Shown here piece after piece: positions 37,307 to 48,823 of a stretch of DNA of 64,000 bases (position 1 is the stretch's first letter; each line of letters opens with the position of its first letter). Source of the DNA: Escherichia phage CJ20; sequence record MT533174.1; one strand, given 5' to 3'. The notes below the pieces were generated by a model. That model saw only the letters and a program-made list of their open reading frames with translations, had not been told where the DNA came from and did not search any database. Both the position numbers and the translations under genes were made by a program.

Positions 37307-37582
37307 ATGACTAAATTTGAAATCGTTTCTGAAATTGTTACTGTAACTTCAATTTTGATTAAAACCGACCGGGAAGATATTACGATGAAGCGTGATGTGT
37401 TTATCGCGTTTTTGAATGAGTTGGGATTGAGGAATGAGAATGGTAATGAGTTAAACAATGTATCGTTTAACAAGTTGTTTAAAAGTTTATCTGAAGATGA
37501 AATTGAACAAATCATTGAACAATTTAACGAAGGATTCGAAGATATACACCGTTATCTTATGATGTATACCTCCGGATTCTAA
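37307..37582 (+). CDS. asiA: Anti-sigma70 factor AsiA
   Basis: 91 aa; EIVTVTSILIK, FIAFLNE.G, EQFNEGFE..HRYL.MYT match remembered T4 AsiA. Confidence 0.85.
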   Translation: MTKFEIVSEIVTVTSILIKTDREDITMKRDVFIAFLNELGLRNENGNELNNVSFNKLFKSLSEDEIEQIIEQFNEGFEDIHRYLMMYTSGF

Positions 37583-38232
37583 CGTGTACGCCCGAGCGTA
37601 CGACCTGCTTGTCCACACATAGCAGAAAGCCTATCAAAACTAAGGTCGGGTTTTTGCTTATACCAGTACAACGAGACTGTGCCTGCGTAAACGTTTTCCA
37701 AATTAAAGAATGGGCAGCTGAACATATATTCGAAGCTGCTTTTTTTCTTTGTTGGTAAGAATACAGATTCCGTGCCGGATTCAAAATAATTACCATTAAC
37801 CCCCGCCAAATATTCTGCTGAAGTTTTATCTATTGGAAACCCACCCAAATTTTTTTCATCAACTGATTCAGGCAATATCCCCTCATACCCCACCATATCC
37901 ACAAAGTAGTTAAGGTTAGTTGGTCTAAAGGAATATATCGCCGTGAAGTCAGCTCCGCTTGACGAGTGGACTATCTGGATTTGCTCGATAGCTGCAATTT
38001 TAAATCTGTTATCCTGGTCTTGCCTTATCATTTCTGTGTACGAGGCGTATGAAGCATCCCTGTACGCATCTAAAATTGCATCACCTTTATACCAGATTAC
38101 CGCCATTAAAAATAATAGAACAATAACTAGTACCCGGGAAAAAACAACTTTCCCGGTCGCATTATCTTTAAAAATTCTATCAAGAAGTCCAAAAAGTAGG
38201 TCTGATAATGAAAATCCTACTTTTGGTTCCAT
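37579..38232 (-). CDS. t: Holin T
   Basis: 217 aa with single N-proximal transmembrane helix and large periplasmic domain; length and position as T4 t. Confidence 0.9.
   Translation of the reverse strand: MEPKVGFSLSDLLFGLLDRIFKDNATGKVVFSRVLVIVLLFLMAVIWYKGDAILDAYRDASYASYTEMIRQDQDNRFKIAAIEQIQIVHSSSGADFTAIYSFRPTNLNYFVDMVGYEGILPESVDEKNLGGFPIDKTSAEYLAGVNGNYFESGTESVFLPTKKKSSFEYMFSCPFFNLENVYAGTVSLYWYKQKPDLSFDRLSAMCGQAGRTLGRTR
37586..37601. other. Stem-loop GTACGC-CCGA-GCGTAC at the convergent asiA / t junction
   Basis: Perfect 6-bp inverted repeat 4 nt after asiA stop, inside the 3' end of t; no T run. Confidence 0.3.
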
Positions 38233-38250
38233 ACTTTTCTCCTTTAAAGA

Positions 38251-38258
38251 TATTTATA
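38251..38258 (-). promoter_or_regulatory. Late promoter box TATAAATA for t
   Basis: Reverse complement of tatttata 38251-38258; 18 nt upstream of t start with SD AGGAG. Confidence 0.6.
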
Positions 38259-38269
38259 ATACAGAAGTA

Positions 38270-39052
38270 TTACACACGGCTTCCGTGGATGGTTCCTACG
38301 TTCTGCCAAGAAGGAGCATTGCCTGTAACGGCTGCACCGCCGGCCCCACCGCCTGATGTTGAGACTTTCTTGCCCCAACCATTTCCCCCGGCAGCAGCTA
38401 CGTTACCACCATTACCGGCACCCCACTGTCCACCAGCGTTACCACCTGAACCAGCCGCAGTTAGAGACGCGTTACCACCCGGTTGATACCCAACGGAGCC
38501 ACCGAGTCCGAATGGACGGCCGCCACCACCACCACAGGTGGCATTAGTTGGCCATCTATTTTGCAATGATGCAGCGCCGCCGCCACCGCCGCCACCGGCG
38601 ATAGAACCATTATTACGAATACGGAGTTTAGTTCCGGCAGCGTTATGGATTGCTGTACCACCTGCTTGGCCTGCAGAACCATTGGTAGAACCGTTACCTC
38701 CTCGACCATAAACAGTTACACCGCTGTTAATAGTAAGCTGTATATACGCATTAGGTAAGTTGCTAGGGAATTCCAGGCAAGGGTTTCCTCTGCTGTTAGA
38801 TACTAAGTCACCAGTGATTGTAATAACCACTGGCGCACCACCTTGGGCTCTCATCCAGTTAATAAGGGAGTTTCTATCATAATTATGGTTGGCGCCTATA
38901 GATAGATAAATTTCTTTTGATTGTCCTGCCATCGAACCCATCCAACCCGGTACTGCAACTCGCACATCTCGCATTGCCGCATCCATCCAACGTTGTCCCG
39001 TTTCATCTACGGCAGATTGTCCAATCCAACCAGGAACACCTACAATTGCCAT
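38270..39052 (-). CDS. 38: Tail fibre adhesin gp38 (T2-type, glycine-rich motifs)
   Basis: 260 aa; conserved N-terminus MAIVGVPGWIG and several poly-Gly motifs separated by variable segments. Confidence 0.85.
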   Translation of the reverse strand: MAIVGVPGWIGQSAVDETGQRWMDAAMRDVRVAVPGWMGSMAGQSKEIYLSIGANHNYDRNSLINWMRAQGGAPVVITITGDLVSNSRGNPCLEFPSNLPNAYIQLTINSGVTVYGRGGNGSTNGSAGQAGGTAIHNAAGTKLRIRNNGSIAGGGGGGGAASLQNRWPTNATCGGGGGRPFGLGGSVGYQPGGNASLTAAGSGGNAGGQWGAGNGGNVAAAGGNGWGKKVSTSGGGAGGAAVTGNAPSWQNVGTIHGSRV

Positions 39053-39064
39053 TAAAAATCCTTA

Positions 39065-39080
39065 GAGGGCCGAAGCCCTC
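39065..39080 (-). other. Intergenic stem-loop GAGGGC-TTCG-GCCCTC between genes 37 and 38
   Basis: Perfect 6-bp stem with tetraloop just upstream of the gp38 SD; possible attenuator or mRNA processing site. Confidence 0.35.
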
Positions 39081-39083
39081 TTG

Positions 39084-42000
39084 TTAATTAAGTTTTGCTT
39101 CAAGTTCTTTAACTTTAGCCGACAGAGTTTTAACTGCTTCAATTAACAGAGCAACTTGTGCCTGGGTTGAAACGGTAAGAACTTTGTTACCTTTAATGTC
39201 GTCAACTTCACGAATAGCTTCAGGTAATACTTTTTCTAAACTCTGTGCAATAACACCTGCTTCGGTATGAACAACTTCGCCACCAATATAATCAGCTTTA
39301 TCATAGATTAAACCGTCTAGCTGTTCAACCTTATCAAGAGCATTTTCAATCGGTTTGAAGTTAGATTTCAAACGAATATCAGAACGAATATAAACGTTCG
39401 GGGCGTTAATATTCATATCCGAATAAGTATCACCTGACTGGAATCTCATGCGGCGGGCGGCATTAGTAATAATATCAAAAATACCGTCACCGCTCTGTTT
39501 AATACCAGTGTCATTATCACCGATTGCAATCGAGTTGCCACCAAGTGCGTTATTGATGTTAATACCAAATGAATTCATTTGATTAACACCAGATACAGTA
39601 GCGTTATTTAATACAAAGCGGTTAGCCCCGCCTGGAGTTTTTTCAAAGTAAGCAATATAGTTAGTTTCATCGGCAATTTCAATACGGTTACCGCGCGTAC
39701 CATCACCTGCATGAAATATACTCATATGTCTTGGATTAGCACCAGACTTATTAAAGTGAATATAACCATTATCTTTGATAACAATATCATTATAGAATGT
39801 GGCAAAGTCGCGAACAGATATGCCATTATTCATTGATACTTCACCAGTCGACAAGCTAATTGCGAAAGGACGTTTACTGTTCCAATCACCATTGACTGTA
39901 GCTGCGCCATCAGTAGCATTTTTATCTGTAAACAGAATATAAAAACTTCCACCGTCGTTTCGTAACATTGTAGCAACAGAACCAGTTTTATCATAGTTAC
40001 TTCTGATACGAATACCGGTTTGGTTATTAATAGCTATTTCAGAATCAGCTTCATAACGTTTTACTTTACCTGTGTCTACCAGGTTGTTAAGCATGTTAGC
40101 TACTTGGCCTTTAACATGATCAACTGGCAAAGAATCTACTGGGTTTTGAGTAGGACCAAAAGCGCCGATAACTTCTACGGTAGCATTATCAACTGCATGC
40201 CAGGTATAAGCTAATTGGTTGGCATAAGTACCAGATTCAACATAGACATCATATGTATTTCCTGAGGTATTAACTACAGCAATATCAGTAAGACCCGCAG
40301 CTGTTCTGGTATACATCACGGCGTTTAAACCTAATGGGCGGTCATTACCAGTACGAAGAACAATTTCTGTTATAGCACACTGCGTAAACAGTCCAGTATT
40401 AAATCCTTTACCACCAGTTACGGTAAATGAAGCAGTAGAAGTAGATTGTGGCATTGTTACTGTTGCAAACTTATACCATCCAGCAGTTGCACCGTATGTT
40501 ACAAATCCGGAATTGACCTTACGGTTTAATGTGGTATTCAAGTTAACAAAATTACCAGAACCACCTGTAATATTACCAGTTCTATCAAATCTGACTTGGC
40601 CTGCTATTAAATCGCGAGGTGAAATAAAATCACCGTTTTTAATAAATTCCCATCCAAAATCAGCGGTCTGTGGACCTGAAGAACCGTTATCTCCGCCACC
40701 ATGGTAATGAACTCGGAAATTACCATTATTAATTAAAGTCCCCAATGAATAGCAACCGTTACCTTGAACATAACGCTGTTTCAAAATCGGAACATATGTA
40801 CCAGTATCAGCTCTATCAATATTCATATAGAACGGCGCACGGACATTTTCATTATTCTGGGAAGCAAATGAACCCGCACCAGCTGGTCGAACTGCGTCAG
40901 TGCATTCGGCATCAATATACGATGCTTGTCCTATCTGCATACGGAAATTAGGAGAAATGCGACTATTACTAGTAACAACAACAAGTTTGCTATCATTGTC
41001 CACAGTAATCATATTACCGCCAGCTCCATCATCGCCTAACGTAACAGAATGGCGCATTTGTACCATACCATTATTAAGACTAATACTTAGCGGGCGGAGA
41101 TTACTTATTCCACCACTTTCACCAGCGTCTTTAGGAGTTGGAATAATATGCAATGCCGCTTCTGAACGACGGAAAATAGCACCGTATTCAGCGTTCCAAA
41201 TTCTTAATGCATCTGCTGTTCCACCAATTTTTACTTGTCCGGTAATAGAAGAACCACCACGAATAGTAGCCCCATTTTCAAAAGTAACGCCACCGCCAAA
41301 TGTACCTTTACCGGAAGCAGTAATATCACCAAGGCCTATGATATGGCCTGTTTCAACAGTTCCGTTAAACTTAAAGTTGACAGGTCCTATACCTCCGGCA
41401 ACGGCCGGATTTGTACGCTGGGCATAAAAATAATAACCTTGCGAATCTGATACTTCAAATACAGTTTCTCTGTTACCGCCGCCTGCATTAAATGAATTAC
41501 CCCAAGCTTTAAGTGTTACAGTGTTTTTGTTTTGACCGTTACGAAGACCTGCGTCCCAATTGATAGTTTTAGTACCATCAACACCAGAAGGCGCTTTAAA
41601 CGATAAAGCATTAGTATTATCATCACCATTTAAAAACAAGCCCGTACGCATAGAAATACGCTGGGTGGAGTTAATTGTTCCGTCCGCTCTAATAGCAACG
41701 CTATTGGAACCGGTTTTAATATCTAAAATTCCTGGTTCAACAATTAAACCTTCTGCCATACCAACAGCCATACGACCCGTGCCACGGAAATAGTGATACA
41801 TTTTAGAATTGCTGTTATAACCGATATGAGTCTGACCATCACCGTTATTATTACCATCAACCTCGGTACGCGCAGTAAACATTGCTTGGTTGTTATTTGG
41901 GAAATCCCAAGTAGAACCAGAATCTCGACTATAACCAACCATCAATTTTTTAGTACTATTAATACCGTTATTAAGAATAGTTGCAGATGAAATACCATTG

Positions 42001-43016
42001 GCCATTAAATCGATAACGCCGTCACGGACCCATTTAATACCTGTATCGTTATCACCAATGGCAATACCTATAGAAATAGCTGAATCTAATGGATAACGAC
42101 CATTTACGCCACTATCAGGAAGACCTACCGAAATAGATTTACCTGCAGTAATACGCCCACTAGTATCAAACGCCCATTGGAAAGATGAAGGCCCAATACC
42201 AGTCCACCAAGAAATTTCTTGTGGCTTACCTTTGCGACAATCAGCAATTTCATGGAAAATACTTGATGCACTTGATGCGCGTAATTTACGCAAATAGTTT
42301 AAACCGTTAGTAGTATCATCAGAACCATCAGCTGGTGGGTTATAAACCCAGGTCGGTAATGAAACCCAGTCATAGCCGATGTTGGCATTTGCAACAAATG
42401 ATTTTGTACTGAAATTAATATTTTTGGTAACAATTTCAGGTCCAGTGATAATACCGTTGGCCGAGTTAATATTACCCGAAGCCGAAATATTACCTGCGCG
42501 GACCTCAATATTGCCATTATCTACAATAAAACTACCATTACGATTAAAAGTCCAATATTTTGAATCACCCGCTTCATTAATATAATGGAATTTAAAACTG
42601 CCTTCGCTTACTAATGTACCTGCTGAAAAAGTGCCGTCTTTATAACGTTGCTTAATCAAAGGGTGATATTCTGATACTGAGGTAGTTGAACTCAAATCCG
42701 TAAAGATAGGTGCTTTAGTCAGATGTTGGTTTGCCCATGCGCCATTACCGGCGGTCTTAGGTAAAAATTCAATATATTTACCGGCATAAACAAATTGGTT
42801 ACCGTTAAGGTTAAATGTCCCATTTTGAAGAACATCCCCATCAATAGTTCCGCCTTTTGCAAAGCCCAAATCAATAATCTGTCCTTGGTCGGATTTAGTA
42901 AAAATAGTGCGGTCACGCAAGTTAATAGCCAGTTCGCCTTCATCTAACTGAGCTGCAGTAGGCTTGGCTCCTGGTGTTTTACTTCTTTTAAATTGTATCG
43001 ATTTTAAAGTAGCCAT
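39084..43016 (-). CDS. 37: Long tail fibre distal subunit gp37 with C-terminal intramolecular-chaperone-like domain
   Basis: 1310 aa; N-terminus MATLK.IQFKRSK and long internal blocks match remembered T4 gp37; last 100 aa resemble a self-cleaving chaperone domain (SDIRLK motif). Confidence 0.95.
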   Translation of the reverse strand: MATLKSIQFKRSKTPGAKPTAAQLDEGELAINLRDRTIFTKSDQGQIIDLGFAKGGTIDGDVLQNGTFNLNGNQFVYAGKYIEFLPKTAGNGAWANQHLTKAPIFTDLSSTTSVSEYHPLIKQRYKDGTFSAGTLVSEGSFKFHYINEAGDSKYWTFNRNGSFIVDNGNIEVRAGNISASGNINSANGIITGPEIVTKNINFSTKSFVANANIGYDWVSLPTWVYNPPADGSDDTTNGLNYLRKLRASSASSIFHEIADCRKGKPQEISWWTGIGPSSFQWAFDTSGRITAGKSISVGLPDSGVNGRYPLDSAISIGIAIGDNDTGIKWVRDGVIDLMANGISSATILNNGINSTKKLMVGYSRDSGSTWDFPNNNQAMFTARTEVDGNNNGDGQTHIGYNSNSKMYHYFRGTGRMAVGMAEGLIVEPGILDIKTGSNSVAIRADGTINSTQRISMRTGLFLNGDDNTNALSFKAPSGVDGTKTINWDAGLRNGQNKNTVTLKAWGNSFNAGGGNRETVFEVSDSQGYYFYAQRTNPAVAGGIGPVNFKFNGTVETGHIIGLGDITASGKGTFGGGVTFENGATIRGGSSITGQVKIGGTADALRIWNAEYGAIFRRSEAALHIIPTPKDAGESGGISNLRPLSISLNNGMVQMRHSVTLGDDGAGGNMITVDNDSKLVVVTSNSRISPNFRMQIGQASYIDAECTDAVRPAGAGSFASQNNENVRAPFYMNIDRADTGTYVPILKQRYVQGNGCYSLGTLINNGNFRVHYHGGGDNGSSGPQTADFGWEFIKNGDFISPRDLIAGQVRFDRTGNITGGSGNFVNLNTTLNRKVNSGFVTYGATAGWYKFATVTMPQSTSTASFTVTGGKGFNTGLFTQCAITEIVLRTGNDRPLGLNAVMYTRTAAGLTDIAVVNTSGNTYDVYVESGTYANQLAYTWHAVDNATVEVIGAFGPTQNPVDSLPVDHVKGQVANMLNNLVDTGKVKRYEADSEIAINNQTGIRIRSNYDKTGSVATMLRNDGGSFYILFTDKNATDGAATVNGDWNSKRPFAISLSTGEVSMNNGISVRDFATFYNDIVIKDNGYIHFNKSGANPRHMSIFHAGDGTRGNRIEIADETNYIAYFEKTPGGANRFVLNNATVSGVNQMNSFGININNALGGNSIAIGDNDTGIKQSGDGIFDIITNAARRMRFQSGDTYSDMNINAPNVYIRSDIRLKSNFKPIENALDKVEQLDGLIYDKADYIGGEVVHTEAGVIAQSLEKVLPEAIREVDDIKGNKVLTVSTQAQVALLIEAVKTLSAKVKELEAKLN

Positions 43017-43024
43017 AATGCCTC

Positions 43025-43684
43025 TTAATAATATCCAAAATCTTCAGATGTACCTCTAAGAACAACCTGGTCAATACGAGGAACGTGTTCGTTCAATGTA
43101 CCTGGGTTCCTAGATATGAAATTCGGGGCTGAAAGAACACCAGCCATAGATTGTATGTTACTATTATTTATTTGGACCTGTTTTGCGTTATCCACATCAC
43201 TTAATCCAACTTGTGCTTTTGACGGAGTATTCCCTGGAGAAAACACTCGACCTGATTCGTCTTTAATTTGACGACCAAGGATATCACCCATTACAGTAAG
43301 ACGGTTTGCACCTATAACAGTAGTCGGGTCGAAAATTACAAACGGTGTACCATCCGATGTCTCAAGACCCATACCTTTGCTCATTCTAAATGAGAAAGAA
43401 TATGTAGCAGACATCGGGGAGTTGTTTACTTTACGTCCTAATTTAACCCAATACCCATCAGTGTCTTTAAACTGTAAATCTTTATCAAACCCTACAGTGT
43501 TTAAATATGTCCCACCTGCTGCTTTAGAAACAAAGTCGTTATCTGCTGCTTGCGGTTTATTGAATTCTGTATATACTTTATATGTTTTGTAAAATAAATC
43601 ATTGCTTACGGGCGTCAACGGAAAATTGCCCTGGTGCCATATTACTGACCCGCCAGTCGTTGAGCCTACTCTTAAATCGGCCAT
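43025..43684 (-). CDS. 36: Long tail fibre subunit gp36
   Basis: 219 aa; N-terminus MADLRVGSTTGGSVIWHQGNFPL matches remembered T4 gp36. Confidence 0.9.
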   Translation of the reverse strand: MADLRVGSTTGGSVIWHQGNFPLTPVSNDLFYKTYKVYTEFNKPQAADNDFVSKAAGGTYLNTVGFDKDLQFKDTDGYWVKLGRKVNNSPMSATYSFSFRMSKGMGLETSDGTPFVIFDPTTVIGANRLTVMGDILGRQIKDESGRVFSPGNTPSKAQVGLSDVDNAKQVQINNSNIQSMAGVLSAPNFISRNPGTLNEHVPRIDQVVLRGTSEDFGYY

Positions 43685-43709: not shown

Positions 43710-43717
43710 TATTTATA
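43710..43717 (-). promoter_or_regulatory. Late promoter box TATAAATA for gene 36
   Basis: Reverse complement of tatttata 43710-43717; downstream SD AAGGGG then ATG. Confidence 0.55.
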
Positions 43718-43719
43718 AC

Positions 43720-43741
43720 GAAAAAAGGACCCGAAGGTCCT
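43720..43741 (-). terminator. Rho-independent terminator after gene 35 (minus strand)
   Basis: AGGACC-CGAA-GGTCCT hairpin 43726-43741 with A run 43720-43725 on plus strand, i.e. T run downstream on minus. Confidence 0.65.
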
Positions 43742-44877
43742 TATTGTTTTTCTCTGAATTCCGCGGCAAATACGAATCCAGCTTGACTGGACCTTGTTGC
43801 ATTTTTATCATTCAATTGTGCAATGACATTACCCATATTACCTGGTTCTCCAGCCACAACCATTCTTATGCCGTTAATACCGATTTCTGCGGATTTAGCC
43901 TGTGTTTCTTGTCGAGCGATTTCTGTAAAGAAAATATTCCTTACTCCACCTTGTCCAGCAGCAACGGTCTTCCTTGCATACAATGTAAATCCATCAGCAT
44001 TCGGTGGAACAACAACATAACGTTCAAACGTCATCCATGCACCAGCCGGTGGACTTGCTTGACCTGTAGATGGGATATCATAATCGTTTGACTGAATCAT
44101 CGTCTGACCATTAAAGAATCGAACAGACATCTGAGTTGTTCCAAGGTCTTTAAGCGCCTGGTCATATGTCAGCTGAAACTTCAGGTAAAAAGTATCACCA
44201 GGGGCCATATTATAATCGGCCGCAGGAGTGATGGGAGAGTCTGTGGGGAAGCGTTTTATTTCTTGTGTACTATTACTATAATATGTGTTTCCGTCTTCCA
44301 CGACGCGCAGAGGGAATCCTGTGCCACCCACATCAGCAAAGTCGTCGTACACCATTTCCAATGGAGTCAATACATCTTCAACAGTTTTCCCGTCATTATA
44401 CAACACATGCTCTTTAACGATTGCATTTCGACCAGAGATATAAAAAGCCGAATACGAAGTATCAACTTGGTCAATCAACCACTTATCCGGAAATGCAGTC
44501 GAGCCGCGTGTTCTGAACCAATCAATTAAAGTTTGGGAAGCATTCAATTTCCCCTGCGATATCAAACAAACAATCCTACCCGCTGGAATGGAATTAATAT
44601 AAGTCACAAAGGCCTGTGAAATGACATCATAGTCTTTTGTGAAACCATAGTTTTTGGTTGCAGTGATTGTATTTGTTACTGGGTCAATCTCAATAAGGTT
44701 TAATCCATTTTGGAAGTTCTGAGGCCCGAAGGCCTCATCTTGAAACTTAACGTAGGGATAGTTTGGCGATTTGGTACAAGTCCCAGCAATCGACAATTTA
44801 TATCTTACTGCGTTATTTTCAGAAAGCACGGGAACTTGGACATATCCCTGTCCAAATTCAGCCATAAATCTTTCCAT
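43741..44877 (-). CDS. 35: Long tail fibre hinge subunit gp35
   Basis: 378 aa; between genes 34 and 36; size close to T4 gp35. Confidence 0.85.
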   Translation of the reverse strand: MERFMAEFGQGYVQVPVLSENNAVRYKLSIAGTCTKSPNYPYVKFQDEAFGPQNFQNGLNLIEIDPVTNTITATKNYGFTKDYDVISQAFVTYINSIPAGRIVCLISQGKLNASQTLIDWFRTRGSTAFPDKWLIDQVDTSYSAFYISGRNAIVKEHVLYNDGKTVEDVLTPLEMVYDDFADVGGTGFPLRVVEDGNTYYSNSTQEIKRFPTDSPITPAADYNMAPGDTFYLKFQLTYDQALKDLGTTQMSVRFFNGQTMIQSNDYDIPSTGQASPPAGAWMTFERYVVVPPNADGFTLYARKTVAAGQGGVRNIFFTEIARQETQAKSAEIGINGIRMVVAGEPGNMGNVIAQLNDKNATRSSQAGFVFAAEFREKQ

Positions 44878-44885
44878 AATACCTC

Positions 44886-47800
44886 TTATGGTGTATCAAT
44901 CCATTCGAATTTAACGGATTTAGTTACTGGGTCCGGAACAATACGTACGTTACCGATTCTTAACCAATCCCTGATAGTCAGGTTACTCATCGAAGCGTTA
45001 TCAGCAGGCAATGCACCAATATCCGACGGCTGAGGTGGGTTACCGCCATCAAAGACCTGAACAAAACCAGACCATGCGTTTTTGTTCTGCTGCCATGTAC
45101 GAGTCCAACGAGTGGTGCTTGCATTAGCAGTATTCGGATAAGTAATCCAGTCTTGATAGAGTGAATTCAGCGTGTTGCCAAACTGAGTCAATGTACCAGG
45201 TGATTTAACTTCTTCACCACGCTCCAAATAAGGCAGACCAGTTACTTCGTTAGTCTTTTCAACCATTTTGAAATAACCAGGGAATTGCTTATAAGTGGCT
45301 TCGTCATTAACGTCAACGGACCAGAAACCGGTATTATCTGCATTAGGTTTTCTAGAATAAAGGTCCGCAGGTTTAGTACCCTGAGAACGAATTCTCGAGT
45401 TAACAGTTAAACCACCCAAATTTATAGTAGCACCTTTGGCAATGATTAAGCTTTCACCAATCGTTACTTGGCCAGATGTATTACTAATAGCTAATGGTCT
45501 TAATCCGTTAAAGCCACCAGTCTGGTCATTTGCATTTGTAAGCATGAAATAGATGTTCGAGTTATCATTACGAATAAAGAACCCGTACTGTCCATTAATA
45601 GCTCTAAATGCGTTTGCACTATAGGTTATAAATTCACCTTGTGCAGTCACCGAACGTCCAAATGTTGCCGCACCATTAGCATTCAATGTTCCGGATGCAT
45701 TAACGTTAATCGGTTGAACTGTGCCGTTGATACTAAAAGTAATATTACCAAGATTATTCCGTTGCGAATAAAAGTGATTAGATGTTTCATCACCAACTTC
45801 AAACACGGTAGAACGAGTCGTATCCGAACCGCCACCATACTGGTTACCCCACACACGGATGCTCATTGACTGAACCGGGTTTGCACCGGATGCAGGACCT
45901 TTTTCGAAAACGATACGGGTCGGAGTTCCTGTGTTACGTATAGTAAATGTGGAGTTAGCAGCCAACGAGCCACCAAATTCACCGGTACCACCAGTCGCCA
46001 GCTGACCATCAACTCTTATGTTCTTTCTAAGGGTTAATGTACCTTCAACGATTTGGTCAATATCACGACGAATGAACTGCGTGCTATCCAGGTTATCCAG
46101 TTTATCCGAGTCTGCGGCTTTAGCTAAACGCGGCAGGAAGTTACCAAGGGTTTTGTTTAACTCATACGGAGAGATAGCATAGCTATTTTTCTCGTACAGG
46201 TCAAGAGCCTGGGTCGAACCTGCAGTTGCATTACCGACAAAAGTAATTGCACCTTCAGACATCTTAGCAAAGCCGCGGGTCGTCGTGGTTGCTGCCCATG
46301 TTGGTTCGGACTGCGCAATCCATTTCAGACTAACCGGAGAAACAGCCAGAACTGAACTTGTTCCTGCGATAGTTTCTGCGCGAGTAGCGATGCGAACAAT
46401 ACCTTCGGTGCCTTCTGTGGCTTTTTTCGACATCAACTTAAGCGGAGTAACGATTGTTTTATCGTCAGTACCAGTATTAACTTCAAGTTGAGTAGCCAGT
46501 CTTGCAGTGCCACGTTGAGTCTCATTTGCTTCAAGAATATTCAGCGTATAATGGTCCCAGAGCGTCCCTGTTTCTACTAAACCACTTGCTGCAATAACAG
46601 AAGTACGAGCAGTATTATTAAGTCTAGTTTTAATTTTTAATGGCGTTGCGATACGAGTATCATCAGTGCCAGTATCAAATTCTGATTGCGTAGCAATCTC
46701 GGCTATGCCGGATAATGATTCTGTTGCTTTACGGTCATTCAACGTTTTAGGAGTCACAGCTCTGGTATAATCGGTTCCGGCATTAGTTTCAGCCTGAGTT
46801 GCAATCTCGATTAAACCATGGTTTGAATCTGTTGCTCTGCGTGCACCTAATGTTTCCGGAGTCACGACCGAGTTACTGAATCCTGTATTTGTTGCCCCGG
46901 CGTTAACTTCTGACTGAGTAGCCAGATATACAGCACCTTGGTTATTCTGGTCAGCTTTATATTGGTCCAAAGCTTTCGGAGAAATTACCAGAGTGGTTGT
47001 ATTTTTATTATAAACGTTTGTCCCAACAGTTATACGGCTTGCTGCTGGAGTAGTCCCAGTAGTAGGAACATACTTAACGATACCAGATAAGCTTTCGGAG
47101 CCCTGACGAGCTTGTAGCTTGCGTGGAGTGATGATTGTAGTATCATCTATACCTGCATCAGTTTCTTGCTGTGTGGCGATTTCTGCGAGCCCACGTCTTG
47201 TTTCTGTAGCTGTACGTTCGTTTAACTTTTTCGGAGAAACGATAATATCATCCTGGAAAGCAAAAGTCGTATCCTGGTTCACCTGAGCAGTGTTAGCAAT
47301 TCGTGCAATACCACGACGTGATTCAGTAGCCACACGGTTAGCCAAAGTCTGCGGAGTAATTGCTAATTCTTTTTCAGGGTTATTTTCATGGTCAACGTTG
47401 GCCTGTGCCTGGTTAGCCAATGCAATAACACCCAGACGAGCACGGGTCAAATCATCCTTCGAGTCAACTCGTTCTACAGTCGGAACGTTTTGCGCAACAA
47501 CCCAATAGTTAATGTTCTTAACCGTATCTTCAAGATAACTTAATTCGATAACTGGCGTATAACTTATGTTACCATTGAAAGTCAAAGAGTCAACCAATAC
47601 CCATTCAGTATCCGGTGGATATTCCGAACGTTTCGGGAACTGGAGCAGCTGAACAGAAGACGCGATTTTATCAGTAGCCGAAGCTTTAATATTAACAGTC
47701 TGTGCCTTGCGAAGATAGTTCAGAGCAATCTTAACTACGTCCCCTGGACGAACACCCGTCGGAAGGTCGATGTTAATTGTCTGCGAGGTGTTGTTATCAT

Positions 47801-48785
47801 TACCGAACACGATAATACTTTCGTTTGACAGCAATTTCACACTGTCACGGATTACGCGCAGGCGAGTTTTGTTATCACCATCCCAAGTCACCCACAGTTT
47901 TTCAGTGGCATTATAAACGAAGAAGCCATCACCAGTTGTACGGAATTCCATACTGTGCTGACCCTGTTTACCCAGAGAGCTTGACTCGTCAAACGTTTCA
48001 ACATCCAGGTGATATAATGGCCCTAATCCATCTATGTCTACCGATTTGACAATATCACCTTGGTTAGCATACTTAGGAAGAACAAATGTAATTTTTTCTG
48101 CAGTCGTATAATGACGCATAATAAAATCTGATGCTTGAGTTCGATATTTACCAGAGCTTGGTTCAATTCTTATTCCGCGTTCTTCGTTACCGGCTTCCCA
48201 AAACTGCCATAAGCGGTTTGAAAAGATAAGCATGTTATAAGAGAACGGTTTTGTAATTAAAACTTCTGAATACTGATTACCAAAACGAACAATCTTTTGG
48301 TTACCTTGACCAGGTACGTTGCTCGATTGAACTTTGATTTCATTATAACCGGTATTACCACCGATATCTTTAATAACGATGGTATCACCATCAGTCGGGT
48401 TCGGGGGTAATGTAAATGTGGTAAAGCTTGCAGCTGAGTCGACCGCGATAAATTCCCCGGAATTAAGCTGACGAGTCGGAGATGCAACAGTTTCCCATTT
48501 CGGGTCAGTACGGGTTGCAGTCCAATATTGCTGAACAAATGAGCCAGCTGGTTCTGCGATTTCGCGTTGGGAAACCCAAATACGGTTATCATAGATAACT
48601 GCGAAGTTCTTTTTGTATCCACGCGTTGCATCATATTGTTGAACTGTGTTTTCTTCTATAAAGAAATCTACGTTAACGCCGTCTGACAAAACTGAGTAAT
48701 CAGCTTTAGCGACATTAATGACTTTCTCACCAGCAGCATCGAGACCGGATGTTGCTCTGAATGCTGGTTTTAAAATATCGGCCAT
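44886..48785 (-). CDS. 34: Long tail fibre proximal subunit gp34
   Basis: 1299 aa; extensive similarity to remembered T4 gp34 including C-terminus IGALP.DNA.M.NLTIRD.LRIGNVRIVPDPV. Confidence 0.95.
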   Translation of the reverse strand: MADILKPAFRATSGLDAAGEKVINVAKADYSVLSDGVNVDFFIEENTVQQYDATRGYKKNFAVIYDNRIWVSQREIAEPAGSFVQQYWTATRTDPKWETVASPTRQLNSGEFIAVDSAASFTTFTLPPNPTDGDTIVIKDIGGNTGYNEIKVQSSNVPGQGNQKIVRFGNQYSEVLITKPFSYNMLIFSNRLWQFWEAGNEERGIRIEPSSGKYRTQASDFIMRHYTTAEKITFVLPKYANQGDIVKSVDIDGLGPLYHLDVETFDESSSLGKQGQHSMEFRTTGDGFFVYNATEKLWVTWDGDNKTRLRVIRDSVKLLSNESIIVFGNDNNTSQTINIDLPTGVRPGDVVKIALNYLRKAQTVNIKASATDKIASSVQLLQFPKRSEYPPDTEWVLVDSLTFNGNISYTPVIELSYLEDTVKNINYWVVAQNVPTVERVDSKDDLTRARLGVIALANQAQANVDHENNPEKELAITPQTLANRVATESRRGIARIANTAQVNQDTTFAFQDDIIVSPKKLNERTATETRRGLAEIATQQETDAGIDDTTIITPRKLQARQGSESLSGIVKYVPTTGTTPAASRITVGTNVYNKNTTTLVISPKALDQYKADQNNQGAVYLATQSEVNAGATNTGFSNSVVTPETLGARRATDSNHGLIEIATQAETNAGTDYTRAVTPKTLNDRKATESLSGIAEIATQSEFDTGTDDTRIATPLKIKTRLNNTARTSVIAASGLVETGTLWDHYTLNILEANETQRGTARLATQLEVNTGTDDKTIVTPLKLMSKKATEGTEGIVRIATRAETIAGTSSVLAVSPVSLKWIAQSEPTWAATTTTRGFAKMSEGAITFVGNATAGSTQALDLYEKNSYAISPYELNKTLGNFLPRLAKAADSDKLDNLDSTQFIRRDIDQIVEGTLTLRKNIRVDGQLATGGTGEFGGSLAANSTFTIRNTGTPTRIVFEKGPASGANPVQSMSIRVWGNQYGGGSDTTRSTVFEVGDETSNHFYSQRNNLGNITFSINGTVQPINVNASGTLNANGAATFGRSVTAQGEFITYSANAFRAINGQYGFFIRNDNSNIYFMLTNANDQTGGFNGLRPLAISNTSGQVTIGESLIIAKGATINLGGLTVNSRIRSQGTKPADLYSRKPNADNTGFWSVDVNDEATYKQFPGYFKMVEKTNEVTGLPYLERGEEVKSPGTLTQFGNTLNSLYQDWITYPNTANASTTRWTRTWQQNKNAWSGFVQVFDGGNPPQPSDIGALPADNASMSNLTIRDWLRIGNVRIVPDPVTKSVKFEWIDTP

Positions 48786-48815: not shown

Positions 48816-48823
48816 TATTTATA
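48816..48823 (-). promoter_or_regulatory. Late promoter box TATAAATA for gene 34
   Basis: Reverse complement of tatttata 48816-48823; 30 nt upstream of gene 34 ATG with SD AAGGA. Confidence 0.6.

Follow-up and report, generated by a model that had tools for sequence, protein, structure and literature searches.

In the window, i.e., the whole 64,000-nt stretch of Escherichia phage CJ20 DNA analysed here (MT533174.1), genes 37 and 38 very probably encode the receptor-recognition module at the distal end of the long tail fibre in a T-even phage of T2 type, not of T4 type. We hold this reading with high confidence on the strength of domain content, conservation of the catalytic motif, solved or processed homologues, the fold predicted for gp38 and the mosaic make-up of the locus, and no evidence contradicting a T2-type module was found. 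The design as such was already known in the 1980s, and its structure has been solved; the arrangement of a gp37 chaperone domain with gp38 is textbook knowledge (Drexler 1986, Tétart 1998, Trojet 2011, Dunne 2018). What appears to be new, judged from sequence comparison, are the receptor-contacting loops of gp38, a variant not found among sequenced phage isolates.

Both ORFs of the module lie on the minus strand. The gene order is g34-g35-g36-g37-g38-t, with g37 and g38 flanked by g36 and the holin gene t, whose product contains the Pfam domain Phage_holin_T. The backbone is a Gaprivervirus-like T-even genome. The stop of g37 and the start of g38 are separated by a gap of 31 nt.

39084..43016, minus strand: gene 37, distal long-tail-fibre subunit precursor, 1310 aa (ORF; Pfam Gp34_trimer and Peptidase_S74; aligned to VR20, T2 and other gp37)
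38270..39052, minus strand: gene 38, T2-type tail-fibre tip adhesin, 260 aa (Pfam GP38 and Gp38_N; PDB 6F45_D and 9V85, by sequence and predicted fold)
39064..39081, minus strand: C(UUCG)G tetraloop hairpin in the g37/g38 gap (dG -13.4 kcal/mol, z -2.3)
43710..43717, minus strand: T4-late-promoter-like TATAAATA, upstream of g36 (position only)

By its position, the last element is a candidate start of a late g36-g37-g38 transcript; it occurs eight times in the window versus 4.8 expected, i.e., not above chance.

The product of g38 matches two Pfam profiles above their curated cut-offs (25 in both cases), GP38 (PF05268; E 2e-82, 276.7 bits) and Gp38_N (PF21721; E 7.6e-17, 61.5 bits), as a T2-type adhesin does, and its gene adjoins a g37 ending in an S74 domain, the neighbour characteristic of such adhesins. 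It is 84-88% identical to gp38 of the T2/VR20 type, and sequence searches relate it to the solved gp38 structures 6F45_D (E 1.4e-45) and 9V85 (E 1.7e-47). An AlphaFold model of the monomer, computed without gp37 (pLDDT 93.2, pTM 0.86), predicts the fold of solved gp38 proteins, which consists of attachment domain, beta-helix and polyglycine-II sandwich; Foldseek aligned it with S16 gp38 (6F45_D, TM 0.84) and the receptor-binding domain of PP01 gp38 (9V85, TM 0.80/0.93), and beyond these two returned no match below E 4. The identity of gp38 as a T2-type tip adhesin with a conserved N-terminus, asserted in the preliminary description of this DNA, is borne out by these similarities and by the agreement of the model with solved gp38.

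38927..39052, minus strand: attachment domain at the N-terminus of gp38 (aa 1-42), containing W9, W22 and W37 (Pfam Gp38_N)

Within this domain, W9 and W22 do not vary among 51 gp38 homologues, in keeping with the conserved Trp 'prongs' that serve gp38 attachment (PMC7917993), and all three residues align with Trp of S16 gp38. The Gly content amounts to 11% over aa 1-115 versus 34% over aa 116-260.

The position of g38, right after g37 and before t, is shared with T4. In a T4-type arrangement, gp38 would be an assembly chaperone outside the virion and the C-terminus of gp37 would bind the receptor. We consider this vanishingly improbable. Neither of the two marks of the T4 type was found: gp38 is without similarity to T4 gp38 (BLASTP E 45) and falls into the adhesin family PF05268, and gp37 gave no match to Collar or Phage_fiber, the domains found in the T4 tip, but ends in an S74 domain. 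As a control, Pfam placed S74 at aa 1243-1300 of T2 gp37 and found Collar and Phage_fiber without S74 in T4 gp37. Furthermore, gp37 has a single relative in the PDB, the S16 complex of gp37 with gp38 (6F45), in which three chains of gp37 accompany one of gp38.

With 1310 aa, gp37 indeed exceeds its T4 counterpart (1026 aa; NC_000866) by about 280 aa, as described beforehand, and this size is normal for the T2 type, where gp37 lengths range from 1288 to 1341 aa. Its C-terminal sequence, ...SDIRLKSNFKPIE...AQVALLIEAVKTLSAKVKELEAKLN, had been taken for a self-cleaving chaperone segment of roughly 100 aa. The Pfam S74 match, the Ser-x4-Lys spacing, the alignment to 6F45 and a motif shared with T2 all argue for this assignment.

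39087..39383, minus strand: gp37 aa 1212-1310, predicted Peptidase_S74 intramolecular chaperone domain; Ser1212 and Lys1217 at its start, followed by a helical tail (Pfam PF13884; 6F45_A alignment)
39381..39386, minus strand: predicted autocleavage site R1211/S1212 (motif NVYIR/SDIRLK; aligned to the S16 and fPS sites)

The PF13884 profile matches aa 1212-1268 (E 7.5e-15, 55.4 bits), above its curated cut-off of 22 and at the extreme C-terminus of a fibre protein; from S1212 to the end of gp37, 99 aa remain. Weak matches of the domain include MYRF and another tail fibre, and aa 1154-1308 align with the S16 gp37 tip (6F45_A, E 5e-11). The domain starts with the Ser-x4-Lys motif S1212-D-I-R-L-K1217, which is conserved in eight gp37 proteins and aligns with SDRRIK of S16. 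By analogy to endosialidase NF and T5 pb1, we take Ser1212/Lys1217 to be the catalytic dyad. T2 and six further gp37 proteins, VR20, dhaeg and IME08 among them, carry NVYIR/SDIRLK unchanged, and this motif corresponds to the fPS site DVYIR^SDGRLKI (PMC7917993).

Since the Pfam match spans just aa 1212-1268 of the 99-aa tail, the domain might also be a relic that stays on gp37 or is cut off by a host protease, with gp38 attached otherwise. This is highly improbable, as Ser-x4-Lys and the whole SDIRLKSNFKPIENAL stretch are kept in eight gp37 proteins that diverge strongly elsewhere. Moreover, the gp37 of T2, whose site is identical, is proteolytically processed according to the account of Drexler 1986 given in PMC3157838, and S16 gp37 autocleaves at the aligned position, DLNVS^SDRRIKK, as PMC7917993 relates from Dunne 2018.

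A self-cleaving domain suggests the following working of the module. The 1310-aa protein would be made as a precursor, whose C-terminal 99-aa S74 domain would aid the folding of three chains into the fibre and would then be self-removed by Ser1212/Lys1217 autoproteolysis after R1211. Cleavage would expose the trimer end ...NVYIR, where one gp38 would dock via its Trp-bearing N-terminal domain in a presumed 3:1 assembly. The glycine-rich motifs of gp38 would build the polyglycine-II sandwich displaying four variable loops, which probably contact an outer-membrane protein of the Escherichia/Shigella host.

Compared with VR20, gp37 divides into three parts ahead of the chaperone domain.

40617..43016, minus strand: VR20-like (Gaprivervirus) shaft, gp37 aa 1-800 (50-aa blocks 82-100% identical to VR20 gp37, most of them 90-100%)
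39567..40619, minus strand: gp37 aa 800-1150, distal-shaft segment, foreign to the VR20 backbone (36-72% identity to VR20)
39384..39566, minus strand: gp37 aa 1151-1211, fibre tip and predicted gp38 docking end, ending ...NAPNVYIR (92-100% identical to VR20)

The prediction of a docking end is taken from S16 (PMC7917993). The best matches of aa 800-1150 are found in Mosigvirus AV109/AV114 (85%) and K3-type Tequatrovirus (76%). At the nucleotide level, positions 38900-39500 are 94-100% identical to VR20, and positions 38250-38550 just 53-74%. The module is thus a mosaic, rebuilt via recombination: the interface pair, composed of the gp37 tip with its chaperone domain and the gp38 N-terminus, is nearly identical to VR20 (about 100% for the gp37 tip and gp38 N-terminus), and gp37 aa 800-1150 and gp38 aa 160-260 derive from outside the VR20 backbone. 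One metagenome contig carries the gp38 allele again, at 95%, next to another gp37 shaft. For basic biology this carries small weight; it is a natural example of cassette exchange in which the interface pair is kept and the loops are swapped.

Being the second departure from the VR20 backbone, with best matches in other genera, the segment of aa 800-1150 might bind as well, e.g., to LPS or O-antigen, so that the module would hold two host-range determinants; its replacement is the pattern expected under host-driven selection. We regard such a role as quite unlikely, for Pfam found no binding domain in the segment, mosaic shafts with no known receptor function are the rule in T-even fibres (PMC3157838), and published g38-only swaps changed the porin receptor completely (preprint 10.64898/2026.04.02.716166). 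The divergence of the segment could be mere hitch-hiking.

Recognition by gp38 leads to its C-terminal half, where the alignments reveal five conserved glycine-rich motifs with four variable segments between them, the arrangement of Trojet 2011. The motif boundaries are our own delineation on conserved alignment columns.

38690..38710, minus strand: glycine-rich motif 1, YGRGGNG, aa 115-121 (conserved columns)
38603..38689, minus strand: variable segment 1, aa 122-150 (alignments)
38573..38602, minus strand: glycine-rich motif 2, IAGGGGGGGA, aa 151-160 (conserved columns)
38537..38572, minus strand: variable segment 2, aa 161-172, ASLQNRWPTNAT (alignments)
38507..38536, minus strand: glycine-rich motif 3, CGGGGGRPFG, aa 173-182 (conserved columns)
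38423..38506, minus strand: variable segment 3, aa 183-210, the most divergent part of gp38 (alignments)
38399..38422, minus strand: glycine-rich motif 4, GAGNGGNV, aa 211-218 (conserved columns)
38357..38398, minus strand: variable segment 4, aa 219-232 (alignments)
38321..38356, minus strand: glycine-rich motif 5, SGGGAGGAAVTG, aa 233-244 (conserved columns)
38273..38320, minus strand: conserved C-terminal motif NAPSWQNVGTIHGSRV (alignments)

Just downstream of glycine-rich motif 3, DNA identity to the compared T2-type g38 alleles collapses, with 41-49% nucleotide identity to these seven alleles over g38 nt 541-570. Variable segment 3 (HVS3) differs from the T2-type sequences, T2 included, by a 3-aa deletion and a 1-aa insertion.

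The DNA encoding these motifs has a G+C content of 0.54 at 38250-38749, versus approximately 0.39 in the surroundings, and contains short direct repeats, e.g., 21-nt copies at 38333, 38513, and 38570. Both features, put forward in the preliminary description as a means of loop exchange, are real; the number of repeats, however, stays within the range of 1000 synonymous-codon shuffles of the same gp38 protein, with the observed counts reached by 176 shuffles for 8-mers, 303 for 10-mers, and 442 for 12-mers. The intragenic G-rich repeats of g38 are no more than Gly coding yields. The documented mechanism is homologous exchange between g38 alleles of different phages at conserved glycine-rich motifs, and not between repeats inside one gene. 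The mosaic pattern found here is compatible with such inter-allelic exchange. In T6 gp38, single deletions of HVS1-3 or GRM2-4 gave no viable phage (Trojet 2011).

The gp38 cassette (aa 160-260) was compared by MAFFT alignments and blastn. It is approximately 70-73% identical to T2-type alleles and 93% identical to one uncharacterised metagenomic protein, the sole close relative. Among 50,697 phage records, blastn revealed none above 74% nucleotide identity over the HVS2-HVS4 cassette, and therefore a receptor is not assignable; an exact look-up returned no recorded gene with precisely this gp38 product. Tblastn with gp38 extends no further than aa 173, the Gly-rich half being masked by BLAST. 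The nearest relative of the cassette, at approximately 70%, is the T2 type, and the T2 receptors are FadL/OmpF (PMC8594841). However, in relatives the exchange of one HVS3 residue can suffice to turn OmpF use into OmpW use (preprint 10.64898/2026.04.02.716166), and 70% identity therefore predicts little. That gp38 loops determine the receptor is established (PMC3157838, PMC12032242, preprint 10.64898/2026.04.02.716166); the initial claim that they set host range is accordingly right for the primary receptor, but too wide for host range as a whole, in which the gp12 short tail fibre and its LPS receptor also matter (same preprint).

An assignment to RB49-type loops, suggesting OmpA, was rejected: the real RB49 and GEC-3S gp38 loops are T6-like and unrelated to those found here. 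Two database proteins (P0004 and P0007) have a short HVS3 like the present gp38 and N-termini 99% identical to RB49; they are themselves chimeras, and therefore the RB49 receptor is not transferable. Recognition of a receptor beyond the known gp38 set (Tsx, OmpA, OmpC, OmpF, OmpW, FadL) by the HVS2-HVS4 cassette is conceivable, though unlikely; the allele would then be a new specificity module, ready for use. As an uncharacterised loop allele, it is usable for receptor-specificity tests or for training or challenging phage-therapy receptor-prediction models.

Among known systems, the nearest sequenced genome is that of Escherichia phage vB_EcoM_VR20 (Gaprivervirus); the flanks of the module are approximately 95% identical to VR20/SP18. 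Identity to VR20 is mostly near-complete over gp37 aa 1-800 and amounts to 92-100% over gp37 aa 1151-1310 and the first 50 codons or so of g38; gp37 aa 800-1150 and the 3' half of g38 are replaced. T2 has the same gene order and the same domains (S74; GP38 and Gp38_N) on a Tequatrovirus instead of a Gaprivervirus backbone. T2 gp38 is 84% identical overall, 91% over aa 1-115 and approximately 70% over aa 160-260. In T2 gp37 the cleavage site is identical and the chaperone domain 74-84% identical, whereas the shaft is largely unlike ours, with 16-60% identity in many blocks.

Salmonella phage S16 (PDB 6F45) offers the architecture predicted here: a gp37 tip, a chaperone domain that autocleaves, and a gp38 monomer built on the polyglycine-II sandwich. 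The residues preceding its cleavage site are DLNVS versus NVYIR, and its gp38 is approximately 43% identical to ours, with differing loops; S16 reportedly binds Salmonella OmpC. PP01 gp38 (9V85) has the same predicted fold (rmsd 1.3 Å over 217 columns) and matches in sequence over aa 40-260 at approximately 49% identity, and again the variable loops differ. T4 shares the late tail-fibre operon position and Gp34_trimer homology in the N-terminal part and mid-shaft of gp37; unlike here, its gp37 tip is a receptor-binding needle and its gp38 an unrelated 183-aa assembly factor. Finally, the Peptidase_S74 domains of endosialidase tailspikes, the T5 L-shaped fibre pb1 and MYRF have in common PF13884, Ser-x4-Lys and a C-terminal position after a trimeric fibre. 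In these, removal exposes the binding tip of the fibre itself, whereas here cleavage would make a docking surface for a separate adhesin, gp38 (PMC7917993).

The window carries a T-even long-tail-fibre operon on the minus strand, followed by the holin gene t, and the coordinates, lengths and quoted residues in the preliminary description of g37 and g38 are all exact. The features are as follows.

Long-tail-fibre operon and associated elements
48816-48823, minus strand: T4-late-promoter consensus TATAAATA, just upstream of g34
44886-48785, minus strand: g34
43741-44877, minus strand: g35, hinge protein gp35
43725-43742, minus strand: C(UUCG)G-tetraloop hairpin, 7 bp, g35/g36 intercistronic gap
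43710-43717, minus strand: TATAAATA, just upstream of g36
43025-43684, minus strand: g36
39084-43016, minus strand: g37, 1310 aa
39064-39081, minus strand: C(UUCG)G-tetraloop hairpin, 7 bp, g37/g38 intercistronic gap; -13.4 kcal/mol, z -2.3
38270-39052, minus strand: g38, 260 aa
38251-38258, minus strand: TATAAATA, just upstream of t
37579-38232: holin gene t, next after g38

Both hairpins resemble the stable UUCG hairpins of T4 intercistronic regions. The positions of TATAAATA, which with eight occurrences in the window (4.8 expected) is not above chance, suggest g34-g35, g36-g37-g38 and t as candidate late transcripts. Gene t (minus strand) and asiA (plus strand, 37307-37582) are convergent and overlap by 4 nt at 37579-37582, as annotated in phage VR20 and relatives. 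In gp35, aa 57-128 match the Pfam family ILEI (interleukin-like EMT inducer, PF15711; 38.2 bits, cut-off 27), and gp35 of a metagenome contig (L008) has the same precomputed match.

Both flanks are approximately 95% identical to the Gaprivervirus phages VR20 and SP18, and the window thus stems from a Gaprivervirus-like Escherichia/Shigella phage. For g37-g38, the best record is again VR20, which at 91% identity spans only 75% of this region, and no record covers at least 80%. Hence, the module is a divergent spot in a conserved backbone.

The proposal that gp38 is a T2-type tip adhesin is supported by Pfam matches (GP38, E 2e-82; Gp38_N, E 7.6e-17), by 84-88% identity to gp38 of T2, VR20, fDHCT2, dhaeg, AnYang, IME08 and dhabil, and by its predicted fold. 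Among solved structures, it matches gp38 of Salmonella phage S16 (E 1.4e-45 to 6F45_D) and the receptor-binding domain of PP01 gp38 (E 1.7e-47 to 9V85); similarity to T4 gp38 is absent (E 45). An AlphaFold2 model computed from a 51-sequence alignment (mean pLDDT 93.2, pTM 0.86) superimposes on 6F45_D (TM 0.84) and 9V85 (TM 0.80/0.93, rmsd 1.3 Å), and no other structure matched it below E 4. Residues W9 and W22 are invariant in 51 homologues and, together with W37, pair with Trp residues of S16 gp38; such conserved N-terminal tryptophans are described as prongs inserting into the gp37 tip (PMC7917993). In the 6F45 complex, a single gp38 chain accompanies three chains of gp37, in keeping with the monomeric gp38 cap described in PMC12032242. 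In alignments, four hypervariable segments (HVS) are parted by five glycine-rich motifs (GRM), which we delimited ourselves at aa 115-121, 151-160, 173-182, 211-218 and 233-244 (GRM1-5).

The chaperone-type domain proposed for the gp37 C-terminus was recovered as Peptidase_S74 ("chaperone of endosialidase") at aa 1212-1268 (E 7.5e-15, 55 bits, Pfam cut-off 22). It starts at S1212-DIRL-K1217 with the Ser-x4-Lys spacing of the family, extends over 99 aa to the protein end and closes with a helical heptad-like tail. As controls, T2 gp37 gave S74 at aa 1243-1300, and T4 gp37 (1026 aa) gave Collar and Phage_fiber domains without S74. The sole solved gp37 relative is the S16 construct of 6F45 (aa 1154-1308, E 5e-11), in which SDRRIK pairs with SDIRLK. 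The stretch NAPNVYIR|SDIRLKSNF(K/R)PIENAL is invariant in eight T2-type gp37 proteins with very different shafts, that of T2 included. T2 gp37 is reported to undergo proteolytic processing (PMC3157838, citing Drexler 1986). As described in PMC7917993 (citing Dunne et al. 2018), the last 113 residues of S16 gp37 autocleave at DLNVS^SDRRIKK, uncovering the gp38 docking surface; the same source gives DVYIR^SDGRLKI as the corresponding site of fPS phages. The S74 domain, the conserved site and the S16 precedent together lead us to predict a gp37 cut after R1211, leaving a mature protein of 1211 aa. Elsewhere in gp37, IAIGDNDTGIK(W/Q)..DG(V/I).D is present twice, at aa 320-328 (42033-42059, minus strand) and aa 1165-1173 (39498-39524, minus strand), the second copy lying just ahead of the fibre tip and pairing with the S16 gp37 tip in 6F45. 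A Gp34_trimer match (PF21446) at aa 514-645 (41082-41477, minus strand) reflects homology of the mid-shaft to the gp34 C-terminus, likewise found in T4 and T2 gp37.

Compared with VR20, gp37 is 82-100% identical over aa 1-800 (mostly 90-100%) and 92-100% over aa 1151-1310, but only 36-72% over the distal shaft (aa 800-1150; 39567-40619, minus strand), which best matches Mosigvirus AV109/AV114 (85%) and K3-type Tequatrovirus fibres (76%). Apparently, this is a second recombination tract of the module, foreign to the VR20-like backbone. The other tract lies in g38.

DNA identity to VR20 around g38
39500-38901: gp37 tip, chaperone domain, first approximately 50 g38 codons; 94-100%
38900-38551: g38 middle; 76-92%
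38550-38251: GRM3 to g38 stop and intergenic; 53-74%
38250-38051: inside gene t; 90-98%

At the protein level, aa 1-159 of gp38 are 86-98% identical to the T2/VR20-type group, while the loop cassette (aa 160-260) reaches only 70-73% with T2-type alleles, HVS3 lacking 3 aa and having 1 aa inserted; over gene nt 541-570 (HVS3), identity to the seven T2-type alleles in the comparison is no more than 41-49%. The 311-nt cassette has no match above 74% identity among 50,697 phage genomes, and no record of the exact gp38 protein was found. Among 5.8 billion clustered proteins, a single cluster is closely related: P0001, from the Logan assembly of SRR30884462 (95% overall, 93% over aa 160-260). Its adjoining gp37 shaft is quite different, which implies that adhesin allele and shaft move separately. 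The gp37 tip and the gp38 N-terminus, the predicted interacting pair, are kept together although their neighbours on both sides have been replaced, in agreement with the "lock-and-key" linkage of subtypes that Trojet et al. pointed out.

The preliminary description attributed loop exchange to repeats in G-rich DNA. The Gly-motif DNA is indeed G+C-rich (0.54 versus approximately 0.39 around) and holds short imperfect direct repeats, e.g., 21-nt copies in GRM5, 3 and 2, but these do not exceed what Gly coding yields: when synonymous codons were shuffled with the protein kept, 176, 303 and 442 of 1000 trials had as many repeated 8-, 10- and 12-mers. Thus, the repeats are a by-product of Gly coding. 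According to PMC3157838 (citing Tétart 1996 and 1998), loops are exchanged when g38 alleles from different phages recombine homologously at or close to the conserved motifs. Identity falls just after GRM3 and returns around GRM5 and the gene end, and such putative breakpoints are in keeping with this inter-allelic route. In T6 gp38, single deletions of HVS1-3 or GRM2-4 gave no viable phage (PMC3157838).

For CJ20 itself, the analysis shows which domains are present, the catalytic motif, the homology, the predicted fold and how the genes are arranged. By analogy with published homologues, the chaperone domain would aid gp37 trimer folding and then self-excise, whereupon gp38 could dock, its variable loops touching an outer-membrane protein. 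The nearest characterised relative of the cassette is T2 (approximately 70% identity), the receptor of which is classically OmpF. PMC8594841 names FadL. Swapping the distal g38 half from HVS2 onward suffices for a change from Tsx to OmpA (preprint 10.64898/2026.04.02.716166; loops also PMC12032242, PMC3157838), and one HVS3 substitution turns OmpF into OmpW specificity (same preprint). Because of the approximately 70% identity and such single-residue switches among gp38 adhesins, the T2 receptor is only a weak lead. We consider it improbable that the cassette is aimed at a receptor outside the known gp38-adhesin set. An apparent link of the loops with RB49 (OmpA) was discarded because RB49 and GEC-3S themselves have T6-like loops. 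P0004 and P0007, database proteins with a short HVS3 like that of the window, are among Krischvirus-type gp38 chimeras that combine a 99% RB49-like N-terminus with variable loops of the T2/window family (compared with RB49, L011, and GEC-3S, L010); they represent a further loop-cassette exchange across genera.

The module differs from the T4 type, as gp38 is unrelated and gp37 has S74 in place of Collar and Phage_fiber. In every feature testable by sequence or model, it belongs to the T2-type gp37/gp38 adhesin system, and its gp37 C-terminus to the S74 chaperone-domain family. The arrangement is already known in detail; novelty is confined to the allele of the loops and to this specific mosaic.
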